Of a stretch of 64,000 nucleotides of DNA, positions 10,432 through 63,991 are shown piece after piece. Each line of letters begins with the position of its first letter. Within the stretch, counting starts at the first letter, position 1. Position numbers and translations under genes: made by a program. Origin of the DNA: Gammaproteobacteria bacterium. Lineage in GTDB: Bacteria; Pseudomonadota; Gammaproteobacteria; Eutrophobiales; Eutrophobiaceae. The DNA is taken from the NCBI GenBank assembly GCA_965221695.1, contig OZ244905.1:3072001-3136000 (forward strand). Reading direction: 5' to 3'. Under the pieces are notes generated by a model. That model was not told the origin of the DNA and ran no database searches. It worked only from the letters and a program-made list of their open reading frames with translations.

Positions 10432-10535
10432 GTTTTAAACCTCCGCTTGAGTCTAATACACTGTAAATTATACTAACAAAACCTTATGATCAGGTTTCTA
10501 TATAAGCATGTAACTGTTGGCGTCGGCGTCTCGCG

Positions 10536-10559
10536 CCACTCCCGTAATTGTGGGAGTGG
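10536..10559. repeat. Short palindrome CCACTCCC-N8-GGGAGTGG (dRS3/REP-like)
   Basis: Perfect 8-bp stem with 8-nt loop; resembles the units at 30414-30501. Confidence 0.45.
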
Positions 10560-10618
10560 TTCGGTGGCTTGTTATTTAGCAAAACTTACACAGCAACAAA
10601 AAAAGGACAAATAAATTA

Positions 10619-10770
10619 GGGAAACTCTGAACAAGTCCATCCTGGACTTGTCAGAGTACGGAAAACAAAAATGCGATTTTTGTTTTCCTCACAATATCAA
10701 TGCCTTACAGTCATTGATATTGCCGATACATCCTTGTATCGTAGGAACCTCTGACTTTATCAGAGGTTCC
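10619..10770 (+). mobile_element. 152-bp five-hairpin MITE-like element, copy A
   Basis: Ends GGGAAACTCTGA...TCAGAGGTTCC, flanked by TTA/TTA; near-identical to 13075-13226 and 57573-57724. Confidence 0.9.
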
Positions 10771-10775
10771 TTAAA

Positions 10776-12293
10776 ATGAATATTGCCATTATCGGCGCCG
10801 GCATCAGCGGTGTTGCAGCAGCCAGTATCCTGAACAAGGCCGGCCACACAACCACATTGTTTGAAAAACACGACCGACCCGGGGGTGTCTGGGCGGTGAG
10901 TTATCCTGGAGTTACTCTGCAGAATACCGCGCGCCAGTATGGCCTGACGGAATTTCCCTGGCCCTTCAAGCCTTCGCTCCATCCCACCGGCGATGAGATA
11001 ATGCGCTACCTGGAACTGGCCATCGAAGGTCTGGGTCTGGATGTGCGCCGGCGCACCGAGGTTGTCGGCATGATTGAAAACGCCGACGGCTGGACAATGC
11101 AGTACCGGGACGAAACCGGCTTGCACGAGGGCCGCTTCGACTATGTATTATCAGCCATAGGCCAGTACACCGAGGGCAAACACAAACCGGTGTTTCCGGG
11201 ACAGGAGACATTCAAGGGCGGGATCATCACGGAACGGGATATCGACACGCCGGAGTTGTTCAAGGGCAAACGCGTTACCGTAGTGGGTTTCGGCAAATCC
11301 GCGGTCGATATTGCCGTTATGGCGGCGGCTGAGGCCAGCCAGGTCAGCCATGTATTCCGGACCCCGCGTTGGTTGATCCCGTTCACGCTGTTCGGCGTCC
11401 ATTACAGCAACCTGCTGTTCAGCCGCTTGACCACTTTTTTCATACCCTGCTGGGCATATCCTTCCCGGTTCGAGCGCTTTGTTCACGACCGATTAGGTTT
11501 ACTGGTTGACGCATTCTGGTATTTCATTTCAAGCCAGGTCGTATTCCTTTGCAAGTTGCGCGGCATGTTCAAGGGACGGGCCGCCAACAGCAGGCTGGAT
11601 ACCCTGCTTCCAAAGCACGAACTGGTCAGAGACCTGCGCTCGGCTACTGCGCTGGCGCCCAGGGATTATTATCGCCTGGTGGCGGATGGGTTGATAGAAC
11701 CTTTCCATGGACAGGTATCACATTTCTCTGAGCAAGCGCTGTGCCTGGAGGACGGGCGCGAGCTCTCCTGTGACGATGTGGTTCTGTGTGTCGGATCGGA
11801 AAAGCCCCGCTTCCCGTTCCTGCCGGAGACATACCGGCGTCTTCTGGAAAGTGAGAATGACGGCATACAGCTTTATCGCCACGTATTGCACCCGGATATC
11901 CCGCGCTTTGCCTGCGTCGGATATAACCACGGCTTTATGCATATTCCGTCAGCCGAGATCGGCACGATCTGGTTGTGCGCTTGTTTGAACGGCGATATCG
12001 AGCTGCCGGCGCGCGCAGAGATGCTCAGGTCTATGGAAACCATTCGGGAGTGGAAGCGCAAGCATATTAACTTTGAGCCTTCGCGTTCCTGCGCGGTGAA
12101 TACCCGGTTTCAGCAATACAACGATATCATGTTGAAGGAACTGGGCATTTCTCCTTACCGAAAAATGCCCAATTTCCTGGCAGAGGCATTTGTGCAATAC
12201 GGGGCGGATGATTACCGCAATATCGTGGATGAATATCTCAACAAGTCACGCTCTCGCAATGTGCCGTTGCCTTCACTGGCGTTGGATACCTGA
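10776..12293 (+). CDS. Flavin-containing monooxygenase (FMO family)
   Basis: IAIIGAGISG FAD motif, GGVW, FPGQETFKGGII, VVGFGKSAVD NADP motif. Confidence 0.88.
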   Translation: MNIAIIGAGISGVAAASILNKAGHTTTLFEKHDRPGGVWAVSYPGVTLQNTARQYGLTEFPWPFKPSLHPTGDEIMRYLELAIEGLGLDVRRRTEVVGMIENADGWTMQYRDETGLHEGRFDYVLSAIGQYTEGKHKPVFPGQETFKGGIITERDIDTPELFKGKRVTVVGFGKSAVDIAVMAAAEASQVSHVFRTPRWLIPFTLFGVHYSNLLFSRLTTFFIPCWAYPSRFERFVHDRLGLLVDAFWYFISSQVVFLCKLRGMFKGRAANSRLDTLLPKHELVRDLRSATALAPRDYYRLVADGLIEPFHGQVSHFSEQALCLEDGRELSCDDVVLCVGSEKPRFPFLPETYRRLLESENDGIQLYRHVLHPDIPRFACVGYNHGFMHIPSAEIGTIWLCACLNGDIELPARAEMLRSMETIREWKRKHINFEPSRSCAVNTRFQQYNDIMLKELGISPYRKMPNFLAEAFVQYGADDYRNIVDEYLNKSRSRNVPLPSLALDT

Positions 12294-13074: not shown

Positions 13075-13226
13075 GGAACCTCTGATTAAGTCAGAGGTTC
13101 CTACGATACAAGGATGTATCGTCAATATCAATGACTGTAAGGCATTGATATTGTGAGGAAAACAAAAATCGCATTTTTGTTTTCCGTACTCTGACAAGTC
13201 CAGGATGGACTTGTTCAGAGTTTCCC
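13075..13226 (-). mobile_element. 152-bp five-hairpin MITE-like element, copy B
   Basis: Reverse complement of copy A with 2 differences; flanked by TCA/TCA. Confidence 0.9.
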
Positions 13227-13256: not shown

Positions 13257-16200
13257 CTAAAACAGAAAATCCGACGCATCCAGACCGGCGCGGTCAAAGT
13301 CTTCCAATTCCACTATGCCGCCGCCGTGCTCCGTAAGATCCAAGACCACATTTGTTCCCTCCGTTGTAACATTGAGTGCGGTAAAATCTGCTATGTCAAA
13401 ATCGCGCAGATCGATTTTATCTTCTTCATCGCCGAAGTCTCTGATTATGTCATTTCCATGACCTGGAGAAAACCTGAAAATATCTACGCCTTCACCTCCC
13501 CTAAGTCTGTCATCGCCGTCACCACCAAACAGAGTGTCCGCACCTAGGCCACCGGAGAGATAATCATTGCCGCTTCCGCCTTCCAACCAATCGTCTCCTG
13601 CATTGCCATATAATTCATCATTACCTTCGCCGCCGTGTAGTGTGTCTGCGCCTGCATCGCCTTGCAACCAATCATTACCTTCGTCACCACTCAGTGAGTC
13701 CGCGCCTGTACCGCCTTCCAACCAATCATTATCTTCATCGCCGTGCAGTGTGTCTGCGCCTGCGCCACCATAAAGCGAATCAGAGCCGGTTCCGCCGTTC
13801 AGTATGTCATCTCCATTGCCGCCATGCAGTGAGTCTCTATCAGAGTAACCATGCAAGATATCCGTACCGCCGTTGCCCTTTATGGTGTTTCTGGATTCGT
13901 CCCCTGTCAGTGTATCTGCGTAGCTGCTGCCGATAATATCCTCGAAATCTCTGATAGTATCTCCTGTCGCATGTCCGCCGGAGACCTCATTGGTCAACAG
14001 ATTTACCGAGACGCCTGCATTCGACGATGCATAGGAGAGAGTATCAAGGCCACTGCCACCGTCCAGGATGTCCGCGCCGGCTCCACCTTCCACCTTATCT
14101 AAGCCACGCCCGCCCTCAATCACGTTGCTCCCATCATCTCCGGTCAGCGTATCCCAGTGCGAGCTGCCGATAATATGCTCGACATCTTGAAAACTATCCC
14201 CTTGCGCGTGGCCGCCGGAGGCTTTATTTGTACGCAGGTTCACCTTGACACCCGAGTTTGACCCTGCGTAAGAAACGGTATCATCGCCACTACCGCCGTC
14301 CAAGGTGTCGCTGCCCTCGTTGCCAAGCAGGATATCATCGCCGGCGCCACCAATAAGCGTGTCTGTGCCGGCATTGCCCCAAATGATATTATTTCTGTCA
14401 TCGCCGGTCAGTGTATCCGCGTGTTCACTGCCGATAATGTTTTCGACACTCAGGATACTATCCCCCTCCGCATCCCCACCAGAGGCCCCGCCAGTTTGCA
14501 AGTTCACAATGACGCCCAGGCTCGACCCGGTATAGGAAACGGTATCATCGCCTTCGCCACCGTCCAGGATGTCCGCGCCGCCGCCGCCTTGCAACTGGTC
14601 ATCGCCTTCGTCGCCGAGCACGGTGTCCGTGCCGGCATCGCCATGAAGCCGATCATTGCCGGTTCCGCCATTCAGTATGTCATCGCCATCGCCGCCATAC
14701 AGTTCATCCCAACCAGTGTAACCATCCAAGGTGTCTGCGCCGCCGTTGCCCCTAATGATGTTGTTGTCTTCATTCCCCGTCAGTGTATCTGCGCGCTCGC
14801 TGCCGATAATGTTCTCGGCATTCAGGATATTATCCCCCTCCGCCTCCCCGCCAGAGCTCTCGCCAGTTTGCAGGTTGACAATGACGCCCAAGTTCGATCC
14901 GGAATAGGAAACTGTATCATAACCGCTGCCGCCGTCCAGGATGTCTGCGCCAGCGCCGCCTTCCAGCTTGTCATTGCCAGCCGAGCCATTTATCACGTTG
15001 TTAGCATCATCGCCGGTCAACGTATCCTCGTGCAAGCTGCCGATAATATTCTCGAACCCCAGGATCTTATCCCCTTCCGCCTCCCCGCCAGATCCCTCGC
15101 CAGTTTGCAGGTTGACAATGACGCTAGCATCTGCCCATACGTAGGAAACAGTATCATTACCTGCGCCACCGTCCAGGATATCGGCGCCGTCAAAGCCCCG
15201 GATGACGTTGTCGCCGTCATCTCCAGTCAGTATATCCGCGTGGTCGCTGCCGAAAATATGTTCTATCCCCTGTATGGTATCTCCTGTGCCATGACCGCCA
15301 GAGACTTCATTAGTGTCCAGGTTTACCGTGACGCCAGCGTCTGACGTTCTATAAGAAACGGTATCATCGCCGTCGCCGCCATCCAGAGCATCGCTGCCTT
15401 CACTACCGATCAGTAAATCATCGCCACTACCACCATTCAAAATGTTATCACCATTGTCACCCAGCAACCAGTCATCACCATCGCCGCCATTCAGGATATC
15501 ATCTCCTTCGCCACCCACCAGCCAGTCATTGCCGTCGCCGCCGTCCAGGGTGTCTGCTCCAGGACCGCCCTTCAGGGTGTCCCGCCCTTCGCCACCGTCC
15601 AGAATATCGTGACCGTCGCCACCCTCAATTTCATCATTGCCGTTGCCGCCCTCCAAGGTGTCGTTACCCTCGTCACCGAACAGCGCATCATAACCTTCGC
15701 CGCCTTCCAGGGTGTCAGCGCCATTGCCACCGTATAGGCTGTCCCAGCCACCGTTACCTTTGATGATGTTGTTGCCGTCATCACCTGCTAGCGAATCCCT
15801 AGCCTCACTGCCGATAATATGTTCAAACCCTTGGACAGAAAACTCTGTCCTAAACCCATAGTAAAAGCTGGCTTTACCCGTATTCAGGTTTATTATGATT
15901 CCCGTATTCGATCCTGCATAGGAAACGGTATCCACACCTCCACCGCCATCCAGAGTGTCTTCACCGCCGTTACCATTGATGACGTTGTCGCCGTCATCTC
16001 CAGTCAGTATATCCGCGTGCTTACTACCGATAATATGCTCGACACCACGGATACGATCTCCCTCCGCATAACCGCCGAAACCCTCGCCAGTTTGTAGGTT
16101 CGCTATGACACCCTCTCTAGACCCTGCATAGGAAACGGTATCCGTACCCGCGCCGCCATCCAGGGTATCTGCGCCGGGACCGCCATCCAGCCAGTCCTCA

Positions 16201-19200
16201 CCATCACCGCCAGCGAGTGAGTCCGCGCCAAGACCGCCATCCAGTTGGTCATTCCCGCCACCACCAGCAAGTGAGTCCCTGCCAGTGCCGCCAATCAGCT
16301 TATCACTGCCTGTTCCACCTTGAAGGACGTCGTCTCCCACACCACCATCCAGTTGGTCATCGCCCTCGCCGCCGTCCAAGGTATCCGCGCCTGAGTCACC
16401 ATCCAGCCAGTCATCGCCCCCACCGCCATCCAGAATATCCGCGCCGGAGTCGCCAATCAGTTTGTCATTACCGCTCCCGCCTTGAAGCATGTCGTCACCC
16501 AGACCGCCATCCAGTTGGTCATTACCGCCTGCGCCATCCAAAATATCCGCGCCCGCATTGCCTCGGATGTCATTGATTTCATTATCTCCAGTCAGCGTAT
16601 CTGCGTGCTCACTGCCGATAATATGCTCGAAACCCTGGATGCTATCGCCCTTCGCATACCCGCCAGAGGCTTCGCCAGTTTGCAGGTCCACTGAGACGCC
16701 CGCCGTTGACCGCGTATAGGAGACAGTATCATCGCCGGCGCCGCCGTCCAGGGTGTCGCCGCCCGCGCCGCCCGCCAGCCAATCATTACCAGTCCCACCC
16801 CGTAGTATGTCGTCTCCCTGACTCCCATCCAGCCGGTCATCACCGCCGGCGCCAGTGAGTGTGTCTGCCCCCGCATTACCCTGGAGGTCATTGTTTTCAT
16901 CATTCCCGGCCAGCGTATCCGCGTGTTCGCTGCCGATAACATGCTCAAAATCACGGATACTATCCCCCTCCGCATACCCGCCAGAGGCTTCGTCAGAATC
17001 CAGGTCTACAATGACGCCTGCGTTCGAGTCTGCATAGACAAGGGTATCGTCACCTTCGCCACCGTCCAGAATGTCCGTGCCGTCTCCGCCATTTATCCAG
17101 TCAGCGCCATATCCGCCGATGATTATGTTATTGTCACTGCTTCCGATCAGCGTGTCCGCGTATTCGCTGCCGGTTACGTGTTCGAAACTTCGGATACTAT
17201 CTCCCGCGGCGTGACCTCCTGAAGCTTCATCAGTTTGCAGGTTTACAGTAACGCCCCTGTTCGATCTGGCATAGGAAACAGCATCATCCCCGTCGCCGCC
17301 ATCCAAGATGTCCGCGCCCTCGCCCCCATCCAGTTCGTCATCGCCGTCGTCGCCGACCAGGGTATCCGCGCCGGGGCCACCATCCAGCCGGTCATTGCCA
17401 ATCCCACCCTGTAGCATGTCGTCTGCCCAACCACCATCCAACCAATCATCACCGTCTCCACCAACCAGGCTGTCCTCGCCTTCAGCGCCATCCAACCTGT
17501 CATCGCCTGCGCCACCATCCAGCCGGTCATTGCCGTCCCCGCCGTCCAGCCGATCATCGCCTGCGCCGCCCTCCATCTCGTCATTACCGCGCCCGCCGTC
17601 CAACAGGTCATTGCCGTCGCCACCCAGAAGTCTGTCATCGCCCTCTTCGCCGTGAAGTTCGTCCTGGCCAGCGCCACTATCCAGGGTATCTGCGTCGTTG
17701 CCGCCGATGATGACATTGTCGCGGTCATTTCCGGTCAACATATCCGCGCTTTCGCCGCCGATAATGTGTTCGAAACCCCGTATAGTATCTCCTGTAGCAT
17801 CACCGCCGGATACTTCATCTGTATGCAGGTTCACCGTAACGCTCGCAATCGACCATGCATAGGAGATGGTATCGTCGCCCTCTCCGCCGTCCAGAATATC
17901 GGCGCCAGCGCCGCCATGCAGCAGGTCATCACCGGCATTGCCTGTGAGCGTGTCATCGCCTCCATCGCCCCGGATGACATTGTCACCGTCATCACCGGTC
18001 AGGATATCCGCAAACTCACTGCCGATAATATGTTCGAAATTACGAATACGATCCCCTGTCGCATCGCCGCCGGATACTTCATCAGTATGCAGGTTCACCG
18101 TAACGCCCGCAATCGATCCTACATAGGAGATGATATCGTTGCCCTCTCCACCGTCCAGAATATCGGCGCCAGCGCCGCCATGCAGCAGGTCATCACCGTT
18201 CCCGCCTTCAATCACGTTGCCTCCATGATCGCCGGTCAGCCAATCTCCGCCCTCGCCACCGATAATATTTTCGAAACCCTGAATTGTATCCGACCTCCAA
18301 AACCCCTCATCGGCTCTGCCATCGCCCAGGTCAACTATCACGCTCCAGGGCCATCCGGCATAGGAAACGGTATCATTACCCAGTCCTCCATCCAGGGTGT
18401 CCGCGCCACCGAAGCCCATGATGACGTTGTCGCCGTCATCCCCAGTCAGTATGTCTGCGTGGAAGCTGCCGAAAATATTCTCGAACCCCTGGATACTATC
18501 CCCCTCCGCATCCCCACCGGAGGCTTCGCCGGAACTCAGGTTTACCGTGACGCCTGCGTTCGATCCGACATACGCAACGGTATCTTCACCGGCGCCGCCG
18601 TCCAGGGTATCCGCGTTGCCGTTGCCCGTGATGACATTGTCACCGTCATCTCCGGTCAGTGTATCTGCGTGCATGCTGCCTATAACATTCTCAAACCCCT
18701 GGATACTATCCCCCTCTGCATGCCCGCCGGAGGCTTCGTCTGCGCGCAGGTCCACCATAACGCCCGCGTTTGACTCTGTATAGGAAAGCGTATCAACGCC
18801 ACCACCGCCGTCCAGGATATCCGCGCCGGCGTTGCCAACAATGAAGTTATCTCCATCAGTCCCGGTCAATGTATCCGCGTAGTCGCTGCCGATAACATGT
18901 TCAAAACCCCGAATGGTATCTCCTTCCGCATACCCACCTGCAGCTTCATCAGTTTGCAGGTTTACTGTCACACCGGCGTTCGATGATGAATAGGAAACGA
19001 GATCATCGCCCTCGCCGCCGTCCAGGACATCGTTGCCCGGGCTGCCGTACAGATCATCATCGCCGTTGCCACCCCACAGCTTGTCATCCCCGTCGCCACT
19101 GCGAAGGCTGTCATCCCCATCGCCGCCATCCAGAGTTTTTGCGCCATCGCCGCTAATCAGTGTGTCATTGCCGGCGCCTCCCCACAACTCGCTGTCTCCC

Positions 19201-22043
19201 ACACCGTCCAATAGCCGGTCATTGCCAGTCCCACCCCAGAGCCGGTTGTTTCCATCTCCGCCATCCAGCTCATCATAGCCGTCACCACCGTCCAGGGTGT
19301 CATCGCCATCGCCGGCAGATAGAATGTCATGGCCAGCCCCACCCCAGATACGGTTATTCCCATCTCCGCCATCCAGCGTATCATTGCCATCACCACCGTC
19401 CAGGGTGTCATTGCCCTCGCCGCCCAACAGGTTGTCATAACCATCGCCGCCGTAAAGCTGATCGTCACCGCCATTCCCATCCAAGTTGTCGTTGCCTTTA
19501 TCGCCGAACAGAATGTCGTCGCCGTTACCACCCGACAGCCTGTCATTGCCGCTATCGCCGTACAGGGCATCATCACCATCTTCACCTGTCAAATGATCCG
19601 AGCCGGTCTCACCTTTCAGCCGGTCATTTCCGGCGCCGCCAATCAGTTGATCACTACCGCTGCCACCAACCAAGGTGTCGGCGCCACCATTGCCCCTGAT
19701 GACGTTCCTACCCCCATCCCCGAACAGTGTATCCGAGCGCTCGCTGCCGACAATGTGTTCAACTCCACGGATAGTATCTCCTGCTGCGTGCCCGCCGTAG
19801 ATTTGACCCGTATCCAGGTTCACTGTCACGCCCGCGTATGACCCTGCATAGGAAACTGTATCATCGCGTCCATTGCCACCGTCCAGGATGTCCGCGCCGT
19901 CACCGCCTTCCAGCCAGTCATTACCGTCGCCGCCCTCAATCACATTGTTTCCTTCATCGCCTGTGAGCGTATCCTCGCGCCGGCTCCCGATAATGTGCTC
20001 GACTCTACGGATAGTGTCCCCTGCCGCATCCCCGCCAGAGGCCTGGCCCGTACTCAAGTTCACCGTCACGCCCCTATTTGACTCGGCATAGGAAGCGGTA
20101 TCATCGCCCTCACCACCGTCCAGGAAGTCTGCGCCGGGACCACCTTGCAGCCAATCGTTGCCAGTTTCACCCTGTAGCGTGTCCTCTCCCGGGCCGCCAT
20201 CCAGTCGGTCGTTACCGTCGCCGCCGGCAAGTGTATCTGCGCCTCTACTACCCCACAGGTTATTGGTTCCATCATCTCCGGTTAACGTGTCCGCGTGCTC
20301 GCTACCGATAATGTGTTCGACTCCCCGGATACTATCTCCATGCGCATGCCCGCCGGAGGTTTCACCAGTTTGCAGGTTCACCGTTATGCCCGCGGCTGAC
20401 CCTGTATAGGAAATAGTGTCATCGCCCTCGCCGCCATCCAGAATATCCGCGCCAGCCCCGCCAATAAGTCGGTCATCACCGTCAGCGCCACTGAGTGTGT
20501 CCGCTCCTGCATTGCCGTGGATGTCATTGTTTCCGTCATCCCCGGTCAGCGTATCTGCGTGCTCGCTGCCGATTACGTGTTCGAACCCCCGGATACTATC
20601 TCCCTCCGCATCGCCGCCGGAGGCTTCATTAGTACGCAGGTTCACCGTGACGCCCGCGTTCGACTCCCTATAGGAAACGGTATCATTACCCTCGCCACCA
20701 TCCAGGGAGTCTGCGCCGGCGCCGCCTTCCAACCAGTCATCACCGTATCCGCCAATGATGCTGTTGTTGCCGCCATCCCCGGTCAACATATCTGTGTAGT
20801 CGCTGCCGATTACGTGTTCGAACCCCCGGATACTATCTCCCCATGCATAACCGCCAGAGGCTTCATTAGTACGCAAGTTCACCGTGACTCCTCTGTACGA
20901 CTCCGCATAGGAAACAGTATCATCGCCCGCGCCGCCATCCATCCAATCAAAGCCTTCACTGCCGATGATGATGTTGTCGCCGTCATCTCCGATTAGCGTA
21001 TCCGAATCCCTGCTACCGATAATGTTCTCAAATCCCCGGATACTATCTCCCTCTGCATCACCGCCGGAGGCTTCATTAGTGCGCAGGTTCACCGTGACGC
21101 CCCAATCTGACCATGCATAGGAAACGGTATCATTACCCTCGCCGCCGTCCAAAACATCAGCGCCGCGGTTGCCTATAATGACATTATCGCCGTCATCCCC
21201 GATTAACGTGTCATCGTAGTTGCTGCCGATAAGGGTCTCGATATCCCGGAAAGTATCCCCTTCTGCATACCCACCGGAGCCTTCACCATTAAGCAGGTTG
21301 ACTATGACGCCCGCGTTTGACCATGAATAGGTAACAGTGTCATCACCCTCCCCGCCATCGAAAAGATCCATACCGTGGCCGCCCTCCAGCCGGTCATTGC
21401 CGTTGCCACCGTACAGATTGTTGGTTCCCGTTCCACCCACCAGCCGGTCGTTACCGTGTCCACCGTCCAGGTTGTCATCGCCATCACCGCCTTCCAGTTC
21501 GTCATTGCCGCCGCCGCCGTAAAGGTTGTCACTACCGTCTCCGCCCTGAAGCCGGTCATTGCCGCTGCCGCCGTAAAGGTTGTCACTACCGTCTCCGCCC
21601 TGAAGCCGGTCATTACCGTCGCCGCCGTCCAAGGTGTCATCGCCGTTGCCGCCGTCCAACCTGTCTTTGCCGTTACCGCCATTCAGCCGGTCGTTGCCGT
21701 CGCCACCATACAGTCTATCATCGCCCTCGCCACCATCCAGGGTATCATCGCCGTCGCCGCCATACAGGGCATCGTCACCATCGCCACCTTCCAGGGTGTC
21801 ATTACCCGAGTAGCCATACAATACGTCATTGCCGCCTCTGCCTTGCAGGTTGTCATCGCCATGACGGCCTTGCAGGAAGTCATGGTCGTCGTCGCCGATG
21901 TATATCTCCAAGCCATACAGCGAGGCGGTCTTTCCCAAGGCGCTGATCTTTTCTCTCTCCGTCGTGGCTAAGGGTTTTTCATTCTTCTCGGGGCTCGCGA
22001 CGGGGACTTCGGTTTTCAGGTTCGTTTTTATCATTTCAACCAT
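13257..22043 (-). CDS. Giant RTX-type (hemolysin-type) calcium-binding repeat protein, probable T1SS substrate or adhesin
   Basis: Long runs of GGxGxDxLx nonapeptides interleaved with 24 copies of a DTVSYxxSxxGVTVNL..GGxAxGDxIxxxEHIIGS module; C-terminal [24 protein letters not shown] typical of RTX secretion tails; no Sec signal. Confidence 0.92.
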
Positions 22044-26710: not shown

Positions 26711-26737
26711 GGAACCTCTGATTAAGTCAGAGGTTCA
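26711..26737 (-). repeat. Mini single-hairpin form of the 152-bp element, overlapping the ybeY stop
   Basis: GGAACCTCTGA-TTAAG-TCAGAGGTTC; ybeY ends ..EPLT-stop inside it. Confidence 0.8.
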
Positions 26738-38041: not shown

Positions 38042-39883
38042 TTATGAACTGCCCTCGATAAACGTCCGCAACTGCTCGGAACGGCTAGGGTGGCGCAGTT
38101 TCCGCAACGCCTTGGCCTCTATCTGGCGGATACGTTCGCGGGTTACATCGAACTGTTTGCCCACCTCTTCCAGCGTGTGATCGGTATTCATCTCAATGCC
38201 GAAACGCATGCGCAACACCTTGGCCTCCCTGGATGTCAACCCGTTCAGCGATTCCCGCATGGTCTGCCGCAAACCCTCGAAACTGGCATATTCGGACGGC
38301 GCCTGGGTGTTCAGGTCTTCGATGAAGTCGCCCAGGTGGGAATCATCATCATCACCTATCGGTGTCTCCATGGAGATGGGTTCCTTCGCGATCTTCAGCA
38401 CCTTGCGTATCTTCTCTTCGGGCATGTCCATTTTTTCCGCCAGTTCCTCGGGCGTGGGCTCCCGGCCCTGCTCTTGCAGAATCTGTCGCGAGATGCGGTT
38501 CAGTTTATTGATGGTCTCGATCATGTGCACCGGAATACGGATGGTCCTGGCCTGATCCGCAATGGAACGGGTAATGGCCTGGCGGATCCACCAGGTTGCA
38601 TACGTGGAAAACTTGTACCCGCGCCGGTATTCGAACTTGTCCACCGCTTTCATGAGGCCGATATTGCCTTCTTGTATCAGGTCGAGAAACAGCAGCCCGC
38701 GATTGGTGTACTTTTTCGCAATGGAAATAACCAAGCGCAGGTTGGCCTCCACCATTTCCTTTTTTGCCTTGCCCATTTTTGCCTCTCCGATGGATATCTT
38801 CTTGTTGACTTCCTTGATTTCAGCAATGGAAAGCAGGTTGTCTTTCAGCGCTTCGACCAGTTTCTGCTGTATTTTGATCACCGCGTCGTTCACTTCCACC
38901 AGAGCTTTTGAATAGGTGGCGCCGGCATTAATCTGCTCCGTGATCCAAGCGGTATTTCTTTCGTTGTCGCGAAAAGAAGCGATAAAGTCTTTGCGGGGCA
39001 TATTTGCGGTCTTGACGCAAAGGCGCATAATCTCGCGTTCCGAACCCCGGATCAGTTCAAGCGCGCTCCGGACATTGGCGGTCAGGGCAGCAATAAATTT
39101 GGGCGCCAGGCGTATCCGTATGAATTTTTCCGTGATGTTGGTCTGAATGGCGGTTGTCTTATCGTGCTCTTTCCCATAACGTTTAATGGATGCCACCAGT
39201 TTCTTGTACAGTTTGTCAAGCTCGGTAATGGCCTTGCGCACTTCTCCCAGATCCACGCTGTCATCCGTGTCGGAATCACTGCCTTCGTCATCATCGCTTT
39301 TCCGGCTTGCTTGTTTCTTGGACTTGGGCGGCAAGCCGCCATCCGGGTACTCATCATGAACATTGAATCCGAGAATGACATCACTCAGTTTCAGTTCCCG
39401 ATTCTGAACACTATGGTATGCGTCCAGCAGCATATCGATGGTTCCGGGGTATAACGACAGCGCATACAGCGCCTGGTTCATGCCGCCTTCAATGCGTTTG
39501 GCAATCTTTATTTCTCCTTGGCGCGTGAGTAGGTCCACCGTGCCCATTTCCCGCATGTACATGCGCACCGGGTCCGTTGTCCTGCCAAATTCGTTTTCAA
39601 CATTGACCAGCGACGCATTTGCATCGTTTGATGAATCAGTATTGTTTGGGATTAATTGATCAAGATCCGGCGGGAATTCATGGACTTCGATTCCCATATC
39701 GGTGATCATGTTGATGATATCTTCTATCTGTTCCGGGTCTACAATCTCCTCCGGCAGGTGTTCAGTCACCTCATGATAAGTGATAAAGCCTTGTTCCTTT
39801 CCCTTTGCAATTAAAAGTTTTAATTGCGATTCATCATCATCGTGGTCCAGTTCGTGTTCTTCAAGCGTTTCAATTTCCGACAT
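38042..39883 (-). CDS. rpoD: RNA polymerase sigma factor RpoD
   Basis: [64 protein letters not shown]. Confidence 0.99.
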
Positions 39884-39906: not shown

Positions 39907-39934
39907 GGGAAACTCTGACTCAATCAGAGGTTCC
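39907..39934 (+). repeat. 28-bp mini form of the element in the rpoD leader
   Basis: GGGAAACTCTGA-CTCAA-TCAGAGGTTCC flanked by TAA/TTA. Confidence 0.85.
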
Positions 39935-40055: not shown

Positions 40056-40207
40056 GGGAAGCTCTGAACAAGTCCATCCTGGACTTGCCAGAGCGCGCAA
40101 AACAAAAATGCGATTTTTGTTTTGCTTACAAATTCAATGACTTATTGTCATTAAATTTGGCGACACATCCCTGTGCCGCAGTAACCTCTGACTTAATCAG
40201 AGGTTCC
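40056..40207 (+). mobile_element. 152-bp five-hairpin MITE-like element, divergent copy C, overlapping the dnaG 3' end
   Basis: Same length and ends as copy A; 23 substitutions by hand alignment; flanked by TAA/TAA. Confidence 0.9.
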
Positions 40208-51338: not shown

Positions 51339-51582
51339 GAAATCGGTAATAATGCAGCAGATTAGAGTCATTAGCGCGGCCATAGAGAGAGCCACTTAGG
51401 ATATATGTCGGGATGGAACAGAAATAGCTCGGTGCGCTGATGAAGCTGGGAAACAGTTCGTCCCCTCATGCAACAGCAAACGCCGCCCCGACAAATACCC
51501 CGCGGTCTGCCGGAACAACGCCTCCGTTAATCGATGTTGAATCTGTTCAATTAATTCTGGGGACACTACTGTTGCCCGTATA

Positions 51583-57572: not shown

Positions 57573-57724
57573 AGGAAACTCTGAACAAGTCCATCCTGGA
57601 CTTGTCAGAATACGGAAAACAAAAATGCGATTTTTGTTTTCCTCACAATATCAATGCCTTACAGTCATTGATATTGACGATACATCCCTGTATCGTAGGA
57701 ACCTCTGACTTAATCAGAGGTTCC
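57573..57724 (+). mobile_element. 152-bp five-hairpin MITE-like element, copy D
   Basis: 3 differences from copy B; flanked by TTA/TTA. Confidence 0.9.
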
Positions 57725-63492: not shown

Positions 63493-63522
63493 GGGAAGCT
63501 CTGACTTAATCTCAGAGGTTCC
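63493..63522 (+). repeat. 30-bp mini form of the element at the cca stop codon
   Basis: TAA|GGGAAGCTCTGA-CTTAATC-TCAGAGGTTCC|TAA; the left TAA is the cca stop. Confidence 0.85.
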
Positions 63523-63963: not shown

Positions 63964-63991
63964 GGAACCTCTGACTTAATCAGAGGTTCCC
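63964..63991. repeat. 28-bp mini form of the element
   Basis: TAA|GGAACCTCTGA-CTTAA-TCAGAGGTTCCC|TAA. Confidence 0.85.

Follow-up and report, generated by a model that had tools for sequence, protein, structure and literature searches.

Four copies of a short non-coding repeat lie in the stretch of DNA analysed here (the window), which is 64,000 nucleotides long and takes up positions 3072001-3136000 of the gammaproteobacterial genome G000, a single contig of 3,539,060 bp with 55% G+C. They occupy window positions 10620..10770 (copy 1, plus strand), 13075..13225 (copy 2, minus strand), 40057..40207 (copy 3, plus strand) and 57574..57724 (copy 4, plus strand), and copy 1 is predicted to fold into five consecutive hairpins (H1 to H5). 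The repeat very probably represents a family of miniature transposable elements with inverted repeats (MITEs) that shares both of its ends with an insertion sequence (IS) of ~1150 bp from the IS5 family, was moved in trans by the transposase of that IS, has since been orphaned and carries its hairpins as structures of the DNA.

The element and its insertion sites

The element proper measures 151 bp, has the ends GGAAACTCTGA...TCAGAGGTTCC and holds no coding capacity. Its terminal inverted repeats, which across the G000 copies read GGAA[A/G]CTCTGA ... TCAGAG[G/T]TTCC, are of the kind that characterises MITEs, as is its multi-copy state. The copy count that an earlier, sequence-only note on this DNA had proposed was carried out with BLASTN and returned 265 matches in G000, of which 86 span nearly the whole length of the element (the near-full copies referred to below); the family as a whole amounts to 204 merged loci covering 19,278 bp, or 0.54% of the genome. 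In public sequencing runs, Logan contigs break at the element borders and depth bins over the element lie far above neighbouring bins, but these depths are totals over all contigs and cannot be read as copy numbers. Within the window, a repeat search grouped the four copies as a direct family (D9) and three inverted pairs (I1-I3). Copies 1, 2 and 4 are mutually 97.4-100% alike, copies 2 and 4 being 98.7% and 97.4% identical to copy 1, respectively. Copy 3 shares only 84.9% with copy 1 and belongs to an older subfamily, the stems of which differ from those of copy 1 via compensated changes. Near-identical sequence is thus found at all four places given in the earlier note, and the imperfect inverted ends described there are seen as GGAAACTCTGA / TCAGAGGTTCC; its picture of three near-identical copies that spread recently fits copies 1, 2 and 4.

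The same note had measured the element at 152 bp with a 3-bp TNA target duplication, and neither value stands, since each interval it quoted takes in one base of the duplication. The window copies are flanked by four bases rather than three: TTAG (10616-10619) and TTAA (10771-10774) at copy 1, TGAG/TGAG on the element strand at copy 2, TAAG/TAAG at copy 3 and TTAA/TTAA at copy 4. Genome-wide, identical 4-bp flanks border 63/86 near-full copies and a further 16/86 differ by one mismatch, compared with 1/86 in a shifted control. The flanking 3-mer is identical in 67/86 copies, and in 63 of these 67 the fourth base also agrees. Most BLASTN alignments start at query base 2, and the base before GGAA covaries with the fourth base after ...GGTTCC across the G000 copies. 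The identity of four flanking bases together with this covarying base therefore defines a 151-bp element with a 4-bp duplication, not one of 152 bp with 3 bp. TTAA dominates the 63 perfect duplications (33 cases), followed by CTAA (7), TTAG (6), TAAA (5), CTTA, TAAG and CTAG (2 each) and six singletons, so that 48/63 conform to YTAR (TTAA 33, CTAA 7, TTAG 6, CTAG 2). Perfect 4-bp duplications also flank 37/55 copies of other genomes.

Proof of insertion comes from a sister genome, G008, in which the site of copy 4 is empty. Here, the sequence reads ...ATATTTAAATGTGAG... with a single TTAA where G000 has TTAA, 151 bp and TTAA; over a longer stretch, G008 reads ...GATAGTTTGAATATATTTAAATGTGAGTAAGAAGTCA... 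and G000 ...ATATTTAA, 151 bp, TTAAATGTGAGTAAGAAGTCA..., and the BLAST alignments of the two copy-4 flanks overlap in G008 by exactly four bases (TTAA). A nested insertion in G000 (93895-94078) tells the same story, with a 151-bp copy lying within the TTAA loop of a 29-bp derivative and the TTAA duplicated. Among the relatives, no base-precise empty site was found for copies 1, 2 and 3, as the intergenic DNA is too diverged or synteny is broken. At the copy-1 locus, the spacer between the same two genes measures 24 bp in G008, 57 bp in G019, 59 bp in G021 and 42 bp in G003, and no MITE lies in it; the absence of copies 1 and 3 from relatives appears at the level of the locus only. Contigs of two public runs (X2 and X5) join window position 10446 to 10776, skipping 329 positions; they may come from a co-occurring related strain with a different copy-1 spacer and are not used as an empty site here. 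Nor does G000 hold a paralogous empty site: a search with the flanks of all 86 copies turned up no left and right flank next to each other elsewhere in the genome.

The reverse comparison covers 62 duplication-flanked elements in fetched loci of other genomes, and for nine of these the position in G000 could be determined. Four of the nine, namely three 151-bp copies and a 42-bp form whose duplication in the relative is CTAG, occupy the same site in G000. For a 151-bp copy (L128) and a 30-bp form (L096), the flanks meet in G000 with a gap of -4, i.e. an empty site, and L009 (151/152 bp) faces a site in G000 that is empty give or take one base. A 27-bp case is not clean, and in the last a 223-bp copy corresponds to a 36-bp remnant with the same TTAA pair flanking. 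The search for empty sites that had been suggested as a check therefore came out in favour of transposition, with copy 4 missing from G008, and L128 and L096 filled in a relative but empty in G000. Because copy 4 is absent from G008, the family would still have been moving after the G000/G008 split, unless G008 lost this copy by precise excision. Orthologous copies of the two genomes differ at 0-1/151 positions, too few to test for compensation after insertion.

A probable partner insertion sequence in related genomes

A search of the genus with PF01609 revealed many transposases, in 16/23 genomes, and a scan of 30 fetched loci for MITE ends picked out two loci of G022 (L017 and L033). The IS at these loci is ~1150 bp long and has inverted ends of 22-23 nt beginning GGAACCTC(T/C)GATCAAGCCC. 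Its 273-aa open reading frame (ORF) matches PF01609 (DDE_Tnp_1; 5.7e-28, 98.5 bits), DUF772 (1.9e-19, 69.8 bits) and the NCBIfam profile NF033581 'IS5 family transposase' (IS5_4), the latter with 320.3 bits at a cut-off of 140. Further copies occur in G001, G014, G137, G110 and G099. The clearest link to the MITE is provided by the IS of G110 (L166), one end of which, GGAACCTCTGATTAAGTCCC, is identical over 18 bases to the MITE right end in reverse complement, while the other, GGAACCTCTGAACAAGTCCC, equals the MITE left end in 18/19 bases. The IS of G137 (L165) carries the right-end type at both ends, and the same 11-bp end core is present in the IS copies of G137, G001, G022 and G014. All listed IS copies (7/7) lie between YTAR 4-mers, which are identical pairs in 3/7. 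Among plasmid-borne proteins, the nearest to the partner transposase carry the annotation IS5 family transposase and do not exceed 57% identity. Looking for a transposase ORF bounded by matching ends, as had been proposed, thus yielded an IS5-family IS in related genomes, and the shared ends together with the NF033581 match bear out the view of a non-autonomous element moved in trans, here by an IS5-family DDE transposase.

The affiliation can be narrowed further. A DDE_Tnp_1-type partner with an IS5-family profile match and a 4-bp YTAR duplication place the system in the IS5-like group. The IS1031/ISL2 groups are defined by 2-3-bp duplications with a TNA target, and PIF/Harbinger (Tourist-like) MITEs by a 3-bp TAA/TTA duplication and a DDE_Tnp_4 partner; both had been named as candidates. 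The first is at odds with the agreement of the fourth flanking base and with the four-base overlap at the empty site. The second does not fit the 4-bp duplication either; moreover, PF13359 has no match in G000, and the partner transposase matches PF01609 far better. For comparison, IS5 of Escherichia coli uses a 4-bp YTAR target (C/T-T-A-A/G), as described in PMC5009759.

In G000 itself, PF01609, PF13359 and PF13586 gave no matches, while positive controls did, and the same holds for Y1_Tnp (PF01797), whose control matched in 6/14 genomes. Searching G000 with the IS as query returned three fragments only, namely 110 columns at 76% identity, 99 at 88% and 62 at 84%, the last of which covers the IS left end. 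One of them lies in the window (51428..51536, minus strand): its 109 bp align over 110 columns, at 76%, to IS positions 403-512 and still encode 26-28 transposase residues. The others are located at G000 1594559-1594654 and 2325191-2325252, the latter beside a 27-bp ends-only form of the MITE. The claim that the window holds no cognate transposase accordingly survives for a working enzyme, but not for its remains. Because only these three short relics are left, G000 appears to have lost the IS, and the ~200 family loci would be orphans, immobile unless a transposase re-enters. The only DUF772 match in G000, an ORF at 2871239-2871460 (L185 1279-1887, minus strand; truncated, 202 aa), was considered as a partner and rejected, being only 25% identical over 65 residues; it is an unrelated, broken IS5/IS1182-like transposase. 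Among 33 merged repeat regions of at least 500 bp in G000, just two elements stand out as multi-copy IS candidates. A 1.3-kb element in three copies (187833-189147, 440967-442275 and 2302879-2304194) and a 2.6-kb element in two (1958047-1960653 and 2116931-2119537), IS3-like and IS21-like as judged by eye from their ORF sequences, both have ends unrelated to the MITE.

The orphan state extends across the order. In a survey of 126 genomes from 34 genera, the MITE (counted at E<=0.001) was found in 55/126 genomes and 23/34 genera, whereas a transposase at E<=1e-30 occurs in 12/126 and an intact close copy, i.e. one of at least 75% identity over the whole length without a stop, in only 4/126 (G022, G001, G137 and G110). 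G008, G013 and G002 have the MITE, and PF01609 is without a match in them. With one genome per species, the exact hairpin-5 motif was present in at least 92 stretches; among the matches listed, nearly all come from uncultured gammaproteobacterial metagenome-assembled genomes labelled Acidiferrobacterales, Chromatiales or Methylothermaceae, and few carry other labels. Outside the order, three genomes of other families in the class also match the element. Having the MITE in 55/126 genomes and an intact partner in 4/126 thus suggests that small elements can long outlive their transposase.

Hairpins, short derivatives and gene context

The DNA fold predicted for copy 1 contains the five consecutive stems exactly as the earlier note had listed them. 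At -50.6 kcal/mol it compares with -11.9 +/- 2.7 for shuffled sequences (z -14.5), and 0/200 shuffles were as good; the opposite strand, folded as RNA, likewise gives five hairpins (-76.4, z -12.3). The predicted structure is far beyond chance and symmetric between the strands. Among the G000 copies (73 distinct rows), 96.1% of stem cells hold standard pairs and 18/58 pairs have changed on both sides; 0/500 shuffles reach either value, and controls with slid partners are 36-46% paired. The pattern holds over larger distances. In an alignment of the four window copies with 55 copies of other genomes (68-99% identity), RNAalifold recovered H1, H2, H4 and H5 unaided, with 13/38 pairs compensated, and missed H3 owing to misalignment of very different sequences. 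When the structure was supplied, 93.9% of 3356 cells pair, 22/58 pairs and 256 cells show change in both partners, and covariation scores 0.206 compared with 0.086; for all four measures, 0/500 shuffles were as high, and slid controls reached 35-46% pairing and 6-12 pairs. Between genera, the sequence of H2, H3 and H4 is almost wholly replaced, whereas the stems, the size of the loops and the total of 151 bp persist.

How these pairs have changed is informative. G-T wobbles fill just 45/4234 cells in G000 and 20/3356 in the cross-genome set, with A-C mismatches in 87 and 78 cells, respectively, and many swaps are between transversion pairs that have no wobble path (for example A-T/T-A 29/29 in columns 95-117; C-G/G-C/A-T 28/15/12 in columns 45-86). 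Among 46 young copies, paired columns have a substitution rate of 0.0247 and unpaired ones of 0.0329, meaning that inserted copies decay almost neutrally. Taken together, rare wobbles, transversion swaps and near-neutral decay point to palindromes that are relevant at the level of DNA, or equally of both strands, in propagating lineages and not at every single insertion, or else to palindromes maintained by template switching.

The family is also modular. Pairing left and right end motifs in G000, with one mismatch allowed and at most 420 bp between them, revealed length classes of 27 bp (141 pairs, of which 73 lie outside full copies), 29 bp (65, of which 58 do), 79-91, 149-155 and 223 bp. 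The 27-29-bp forms consist of the two ends back to back with a loop of 5-7 nt. When they lie free (n=131), 47 have a perfect 4-bp duplication and 34 one with a single mismatch, against 3 in a shifted control. For 49/73 of the 27-mers, an oriented loop could be tabulated, and 26 of these carry at position 5 the base type of the left end, not that of the inner arm of hairpin 5. This left-end base argues that the 27-mers descend from complete elements in which the entire stretch separating the left end from its direct repeat (10/11) in hairpin 5 was lost; alternatively, the 27-29-bp forms may be minimal elements in their own right. The data fit either collapse in place or transposition of collapsed forms. 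A strict pattern for H1-type palindromes in the both-ends form matched three in G000, none with a duplication. Intermediate forms of 79-91 bp, which retain H1, H4 and H5 or H1, H2 and H5, are outnumbered by the full form, and six 223-bp copies carry an extra 72-bp segment of three hairpins between H3 and H4.

The window holds several of these derivatives. Ends-only forms of 27 bp are found at 26711..26737 (flanks TATA/TATA), 39908..39934 (TAAG/TTAG; absent at the same place in G002 and G008) and 63964..63990 (CTAA/CTAA), and one of 29 bp at 63494..63522 (TAAG/TAAG), while a truncated short variant on the minus strand, from 12951 to approximately 13017, comprises H5, part of H4 and part of H1 (repeats D11, I4 and I5). 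Outside the window, G000 contains a second non-autonomous repeat family of ~330-400 bp with the ends CCCGAAWATCTCACCAATTG... / ...CAATTGGTGAGATWTTCGGG and at least seven copies (near 39516, 2083232, 2798607, 2832395, 2919441, 3195502 and 3247046). The 72-bp three-hairpin segment of the 223-bp MITE variants recurs in this family, and this common segment suggests that modules have been exchanged between the two.

With respect to genes, which were called crudely as ORFs, 72/86 copies are intergenic in that their overlap with a called ORF does not exceed half, and the flanks have a mean G+C content of 43%. Copies are enriched in divergent and convergent spacers, with 27 and 22 of the 86 compared with 18% each genome-wide, and copies between co-directional genes are oriented with them in 24 cases and against them in 13. 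A clearer asymmetry emerges close to start codons: where a called ORF starts at most 8 nt from the element, it faces the right end in 9/9 cases, while of those at 13-40 nt, 10 face the right end and 9 the left. In these nine cases, the right end lies 2-8 nt before an ATG, which places its GAGG 6-12 nt upstream of the ATG, and this GAGG is paired within the predicted fold of hairpin 5. Where it abuts a start codon, the right-end GAGG thus apparently serves as a ribosome-binding site. Copy 1 illustrates the arrangement, with its right end 5 nt before the ATG at 10776 that starts a 505-aa ORF, the N-terminus of which is conserved in four relatives and confirms this start codon. A promoter-like TTGATA-17-TATCGT in the same copy (10714-10742) was set aside, as 2 such sites were found against 0.9 +/- 0.9 in shuffles and the site is lost in diverged subfamilies. 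Copy 2 is inserted ~30 bp past the stop of a gene for a 2928-aa repeat protein, between this stop and a 161-aa ORF. The gene itself (13257-22043, minus strand) is built of 27-nt-periodic repeats (D1-D8) and looks like that of a giant calcium-binding-repeat (RTX-like) protein.

How might such an element have moved? In the most plausible scenario, the IS transposase (DDE_Tnp_1 plus DUF772; IS5_4) would bind the ~18-19-bp termini in trans and place the element into AT-rich DNA between genes, at YTAR and mostly at TTAA, whereby 4 bp are duplicated. Internal loss between the left end and its hairpin-5 direct repeat would then probably give rise to the 27-29-bp forms, in the manner of solo long terminal repeats. 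Pairing and the 151-bp length persist across genera in propagating lineages, while inserted copies drift. As to what the hairpins do, we tentatively prefer a putative role in aiding the transposition of so short an element, a reading we hold at somewhat under even odds: by collapsing into cruciforms or single-strand hairpins they would let the two ends meet, with H1 and H5 presenting these ends as duplex stems. A bolder version, in which the hairpin stack is a DNA device selected for transposition and the 27-29-bp palindromes are themselves mobile, strikes us as improbable. If true, the stack would let a DDE transposase act on an element whose shortness and stiffness keep it from looping, and the mobile palindromes would be the smallest transposable units described.

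Several observations weigh against this overall picture. Mobilisation in trans is deduced from anatomy and the empty site. MITE and IS are alike only at their termini, so descent by simple deletion is not established, and G022 carries an intact IS yet has no 151-bp match at E<=0.001. The orthologous pair of a 223-bp copy and a 36-bp remnant is not a clean deletion product. For the hairpins, the alignment rows are related by descent, which means that stem cells cannot be counted as separate events; an exact match to hairpin 5 was the basis for choosing rows L061-L152, making hairpin 5 invariant by construction; and further pair types in the cross-genome set number 40 against 43.7 in shuffles, with 491/500 shuffles as high. 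The bias towards ribosome-binding sites comprises nine cases and crude ORF calls.

The many transversion swaps without a wobble path lend weight to a rival in which the hairpins have no function at all: the palindromes would be made and kept by template switching from arm to arm (quasi-palindrome correction) in an otherwise ordinary MITE. Template switching yields compensated patterns in one step without selection, according to PMC8794818, and compensated changes with so few wobble intermediates are in line with it. What it leaves unexplained is why 151 +/- 2 bp and the same five stems persist at 75% identity across 23/34 genera and why the full form exceeds the 79-91-bp forms; moreover, single copies gather broken pairs (~4-6% of cells), so correction is not fast. 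We consider this alternative a serious but minority possibility. RNA-level roles have been proposed for REP, ERIC and Correia elements, and the hairpins could similarly act in host RNA, through mRNA stabilisation, termination, processing or translational control, with the benefit to the host keeping the structure. The intergenic location of most copies, the promoter-like site in copy 1 and the nine copies abutting start codons, where the paired GAGG of hairpin 5 could gate translation as judged from the fold, are in line with such a role. Against it, stems in young copies are hardly more constrained than unpaired columns, G-U wobbles are rare on both strands, the orientation bias is weak at most, no terminator-like site was found, and the promoter-like site is within chance and not kept in diverged subfamilies; a host-RNA function is thus rather unlikely. 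Serial short hairpins with a conserved structure and changing sequence also recall REP/BIME units and the hairpin ends of IS200/IS605 (reviewed in PMC3184786), which would imply a single-strand element whose hairpins are recognised by an HUH (Y1) transposase. This option, raised earlier as HUH/RAYT, is contradicted by the clear 4-bp duplications and the empty site, by termini that equal those of a DDE IS and by the lack of a Y1_Tnp match in G000, leaving it scarcely any probability.

Relation to known elements

Within the searches made, the family is new. Rfam returned two tRNAs only for the window at gathering thresholds and, for 10500-10900 at E up to 10, five matches with a best score of 20.2 bits against a threshold of 42. 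Plasmid and phage collections gave no match to the element; a literature search by four terminal motifs found unrelated primers only, one by a 17-mer loop motif found none, and a topical search returned nothing on the family. Within Rfam, these collections and the literature motif search, the earlier impression that the repeat is not a described family therefore stands. It is a new MITE family of an established kind, the IS5-end MITE, and its notable traits are independent, compensated hairpins, duplication-flanked ends-only forms of 27-29 bp and a broad persistence without the transposase. It provides a large uncultured gammaproteobacterial order with a well-documented MITE/IS pair and explains ~200 intergenic loci of G000, including those next to at least nine genes with a seemingly donated ribosome-binding site. 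Its numerous copies of graded divergence, its five independent stems, the near-absence of wobble pairs and the near-neutral decay also make it a good natural data set on compensated stem change in DNA repeats, where selection on structure can be set against template-switch mutation.

MITEs that share ends with IS5-family elements include BrickBuilt and MITE464 of Porphyromonas gingivalis and ATR of Neisseria (PMC4596501). The present family resembles these elements in being small, non-coding, multi-copy and intergenic, with IS5-matching ends, no transposase remnant and predicted stem-loops. It differs from them in that the match to the asymmetric IS extends over 18-19 bp at either end, the 4-bp YTAR duplication is regular, the five hairpins are independently compensated across genera and most host genomes are without the IS. 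Similarities to E. coli IS5 comprise the 4-bp YTAR duplication, the preference for non-coding DNA and a DDE_Tnp_1-type transposase (PMC5009759). Unlike in E. coli IS5, TTAA dominates the targets (33/63), and none of the plasmid-borne IS5-family proteins found exceeds 57% identity to the partner. The ends of E. coli IS5 begin with GGAA, as they do here.

Looking beyond IS5, Correia (CREE), ERIC/IRU and RUP elements are alike in being MITE-like repeats of 100-170 bp with stable folds that lie next to genes and may donate promoters or processing sites. Correia, ERIC and RUP (IS630/Tc1-like) duplicate TA and form mainly one long hairpin from their two ends. In contrast, the present family duplicates 4 bp, and each of its ends pairs with an internal copy of itself, with three local hairpins in between. 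Pneumococcal BOX has, to our knowledge, no regular target duplication and no known IS partner, both of which are found here. BOX and bcr1 of the Bacillus cereus group likewise combine several independent stem-loops in a short repeat and gain or lose modules; multi-stem-loop repeats such as bcr1 are treated in a review (PMC3184786). Finally, the 27-29-bp forms resemble REP/BIME sequences as dispersed palindromic units of 20-40 bp in hundreds of copies. REPs are without target duplications and depend on a Y1 enzyme (RAYT), whereas the 27-29-bp forms are back-to-back IS ends with 4-bp repeats.

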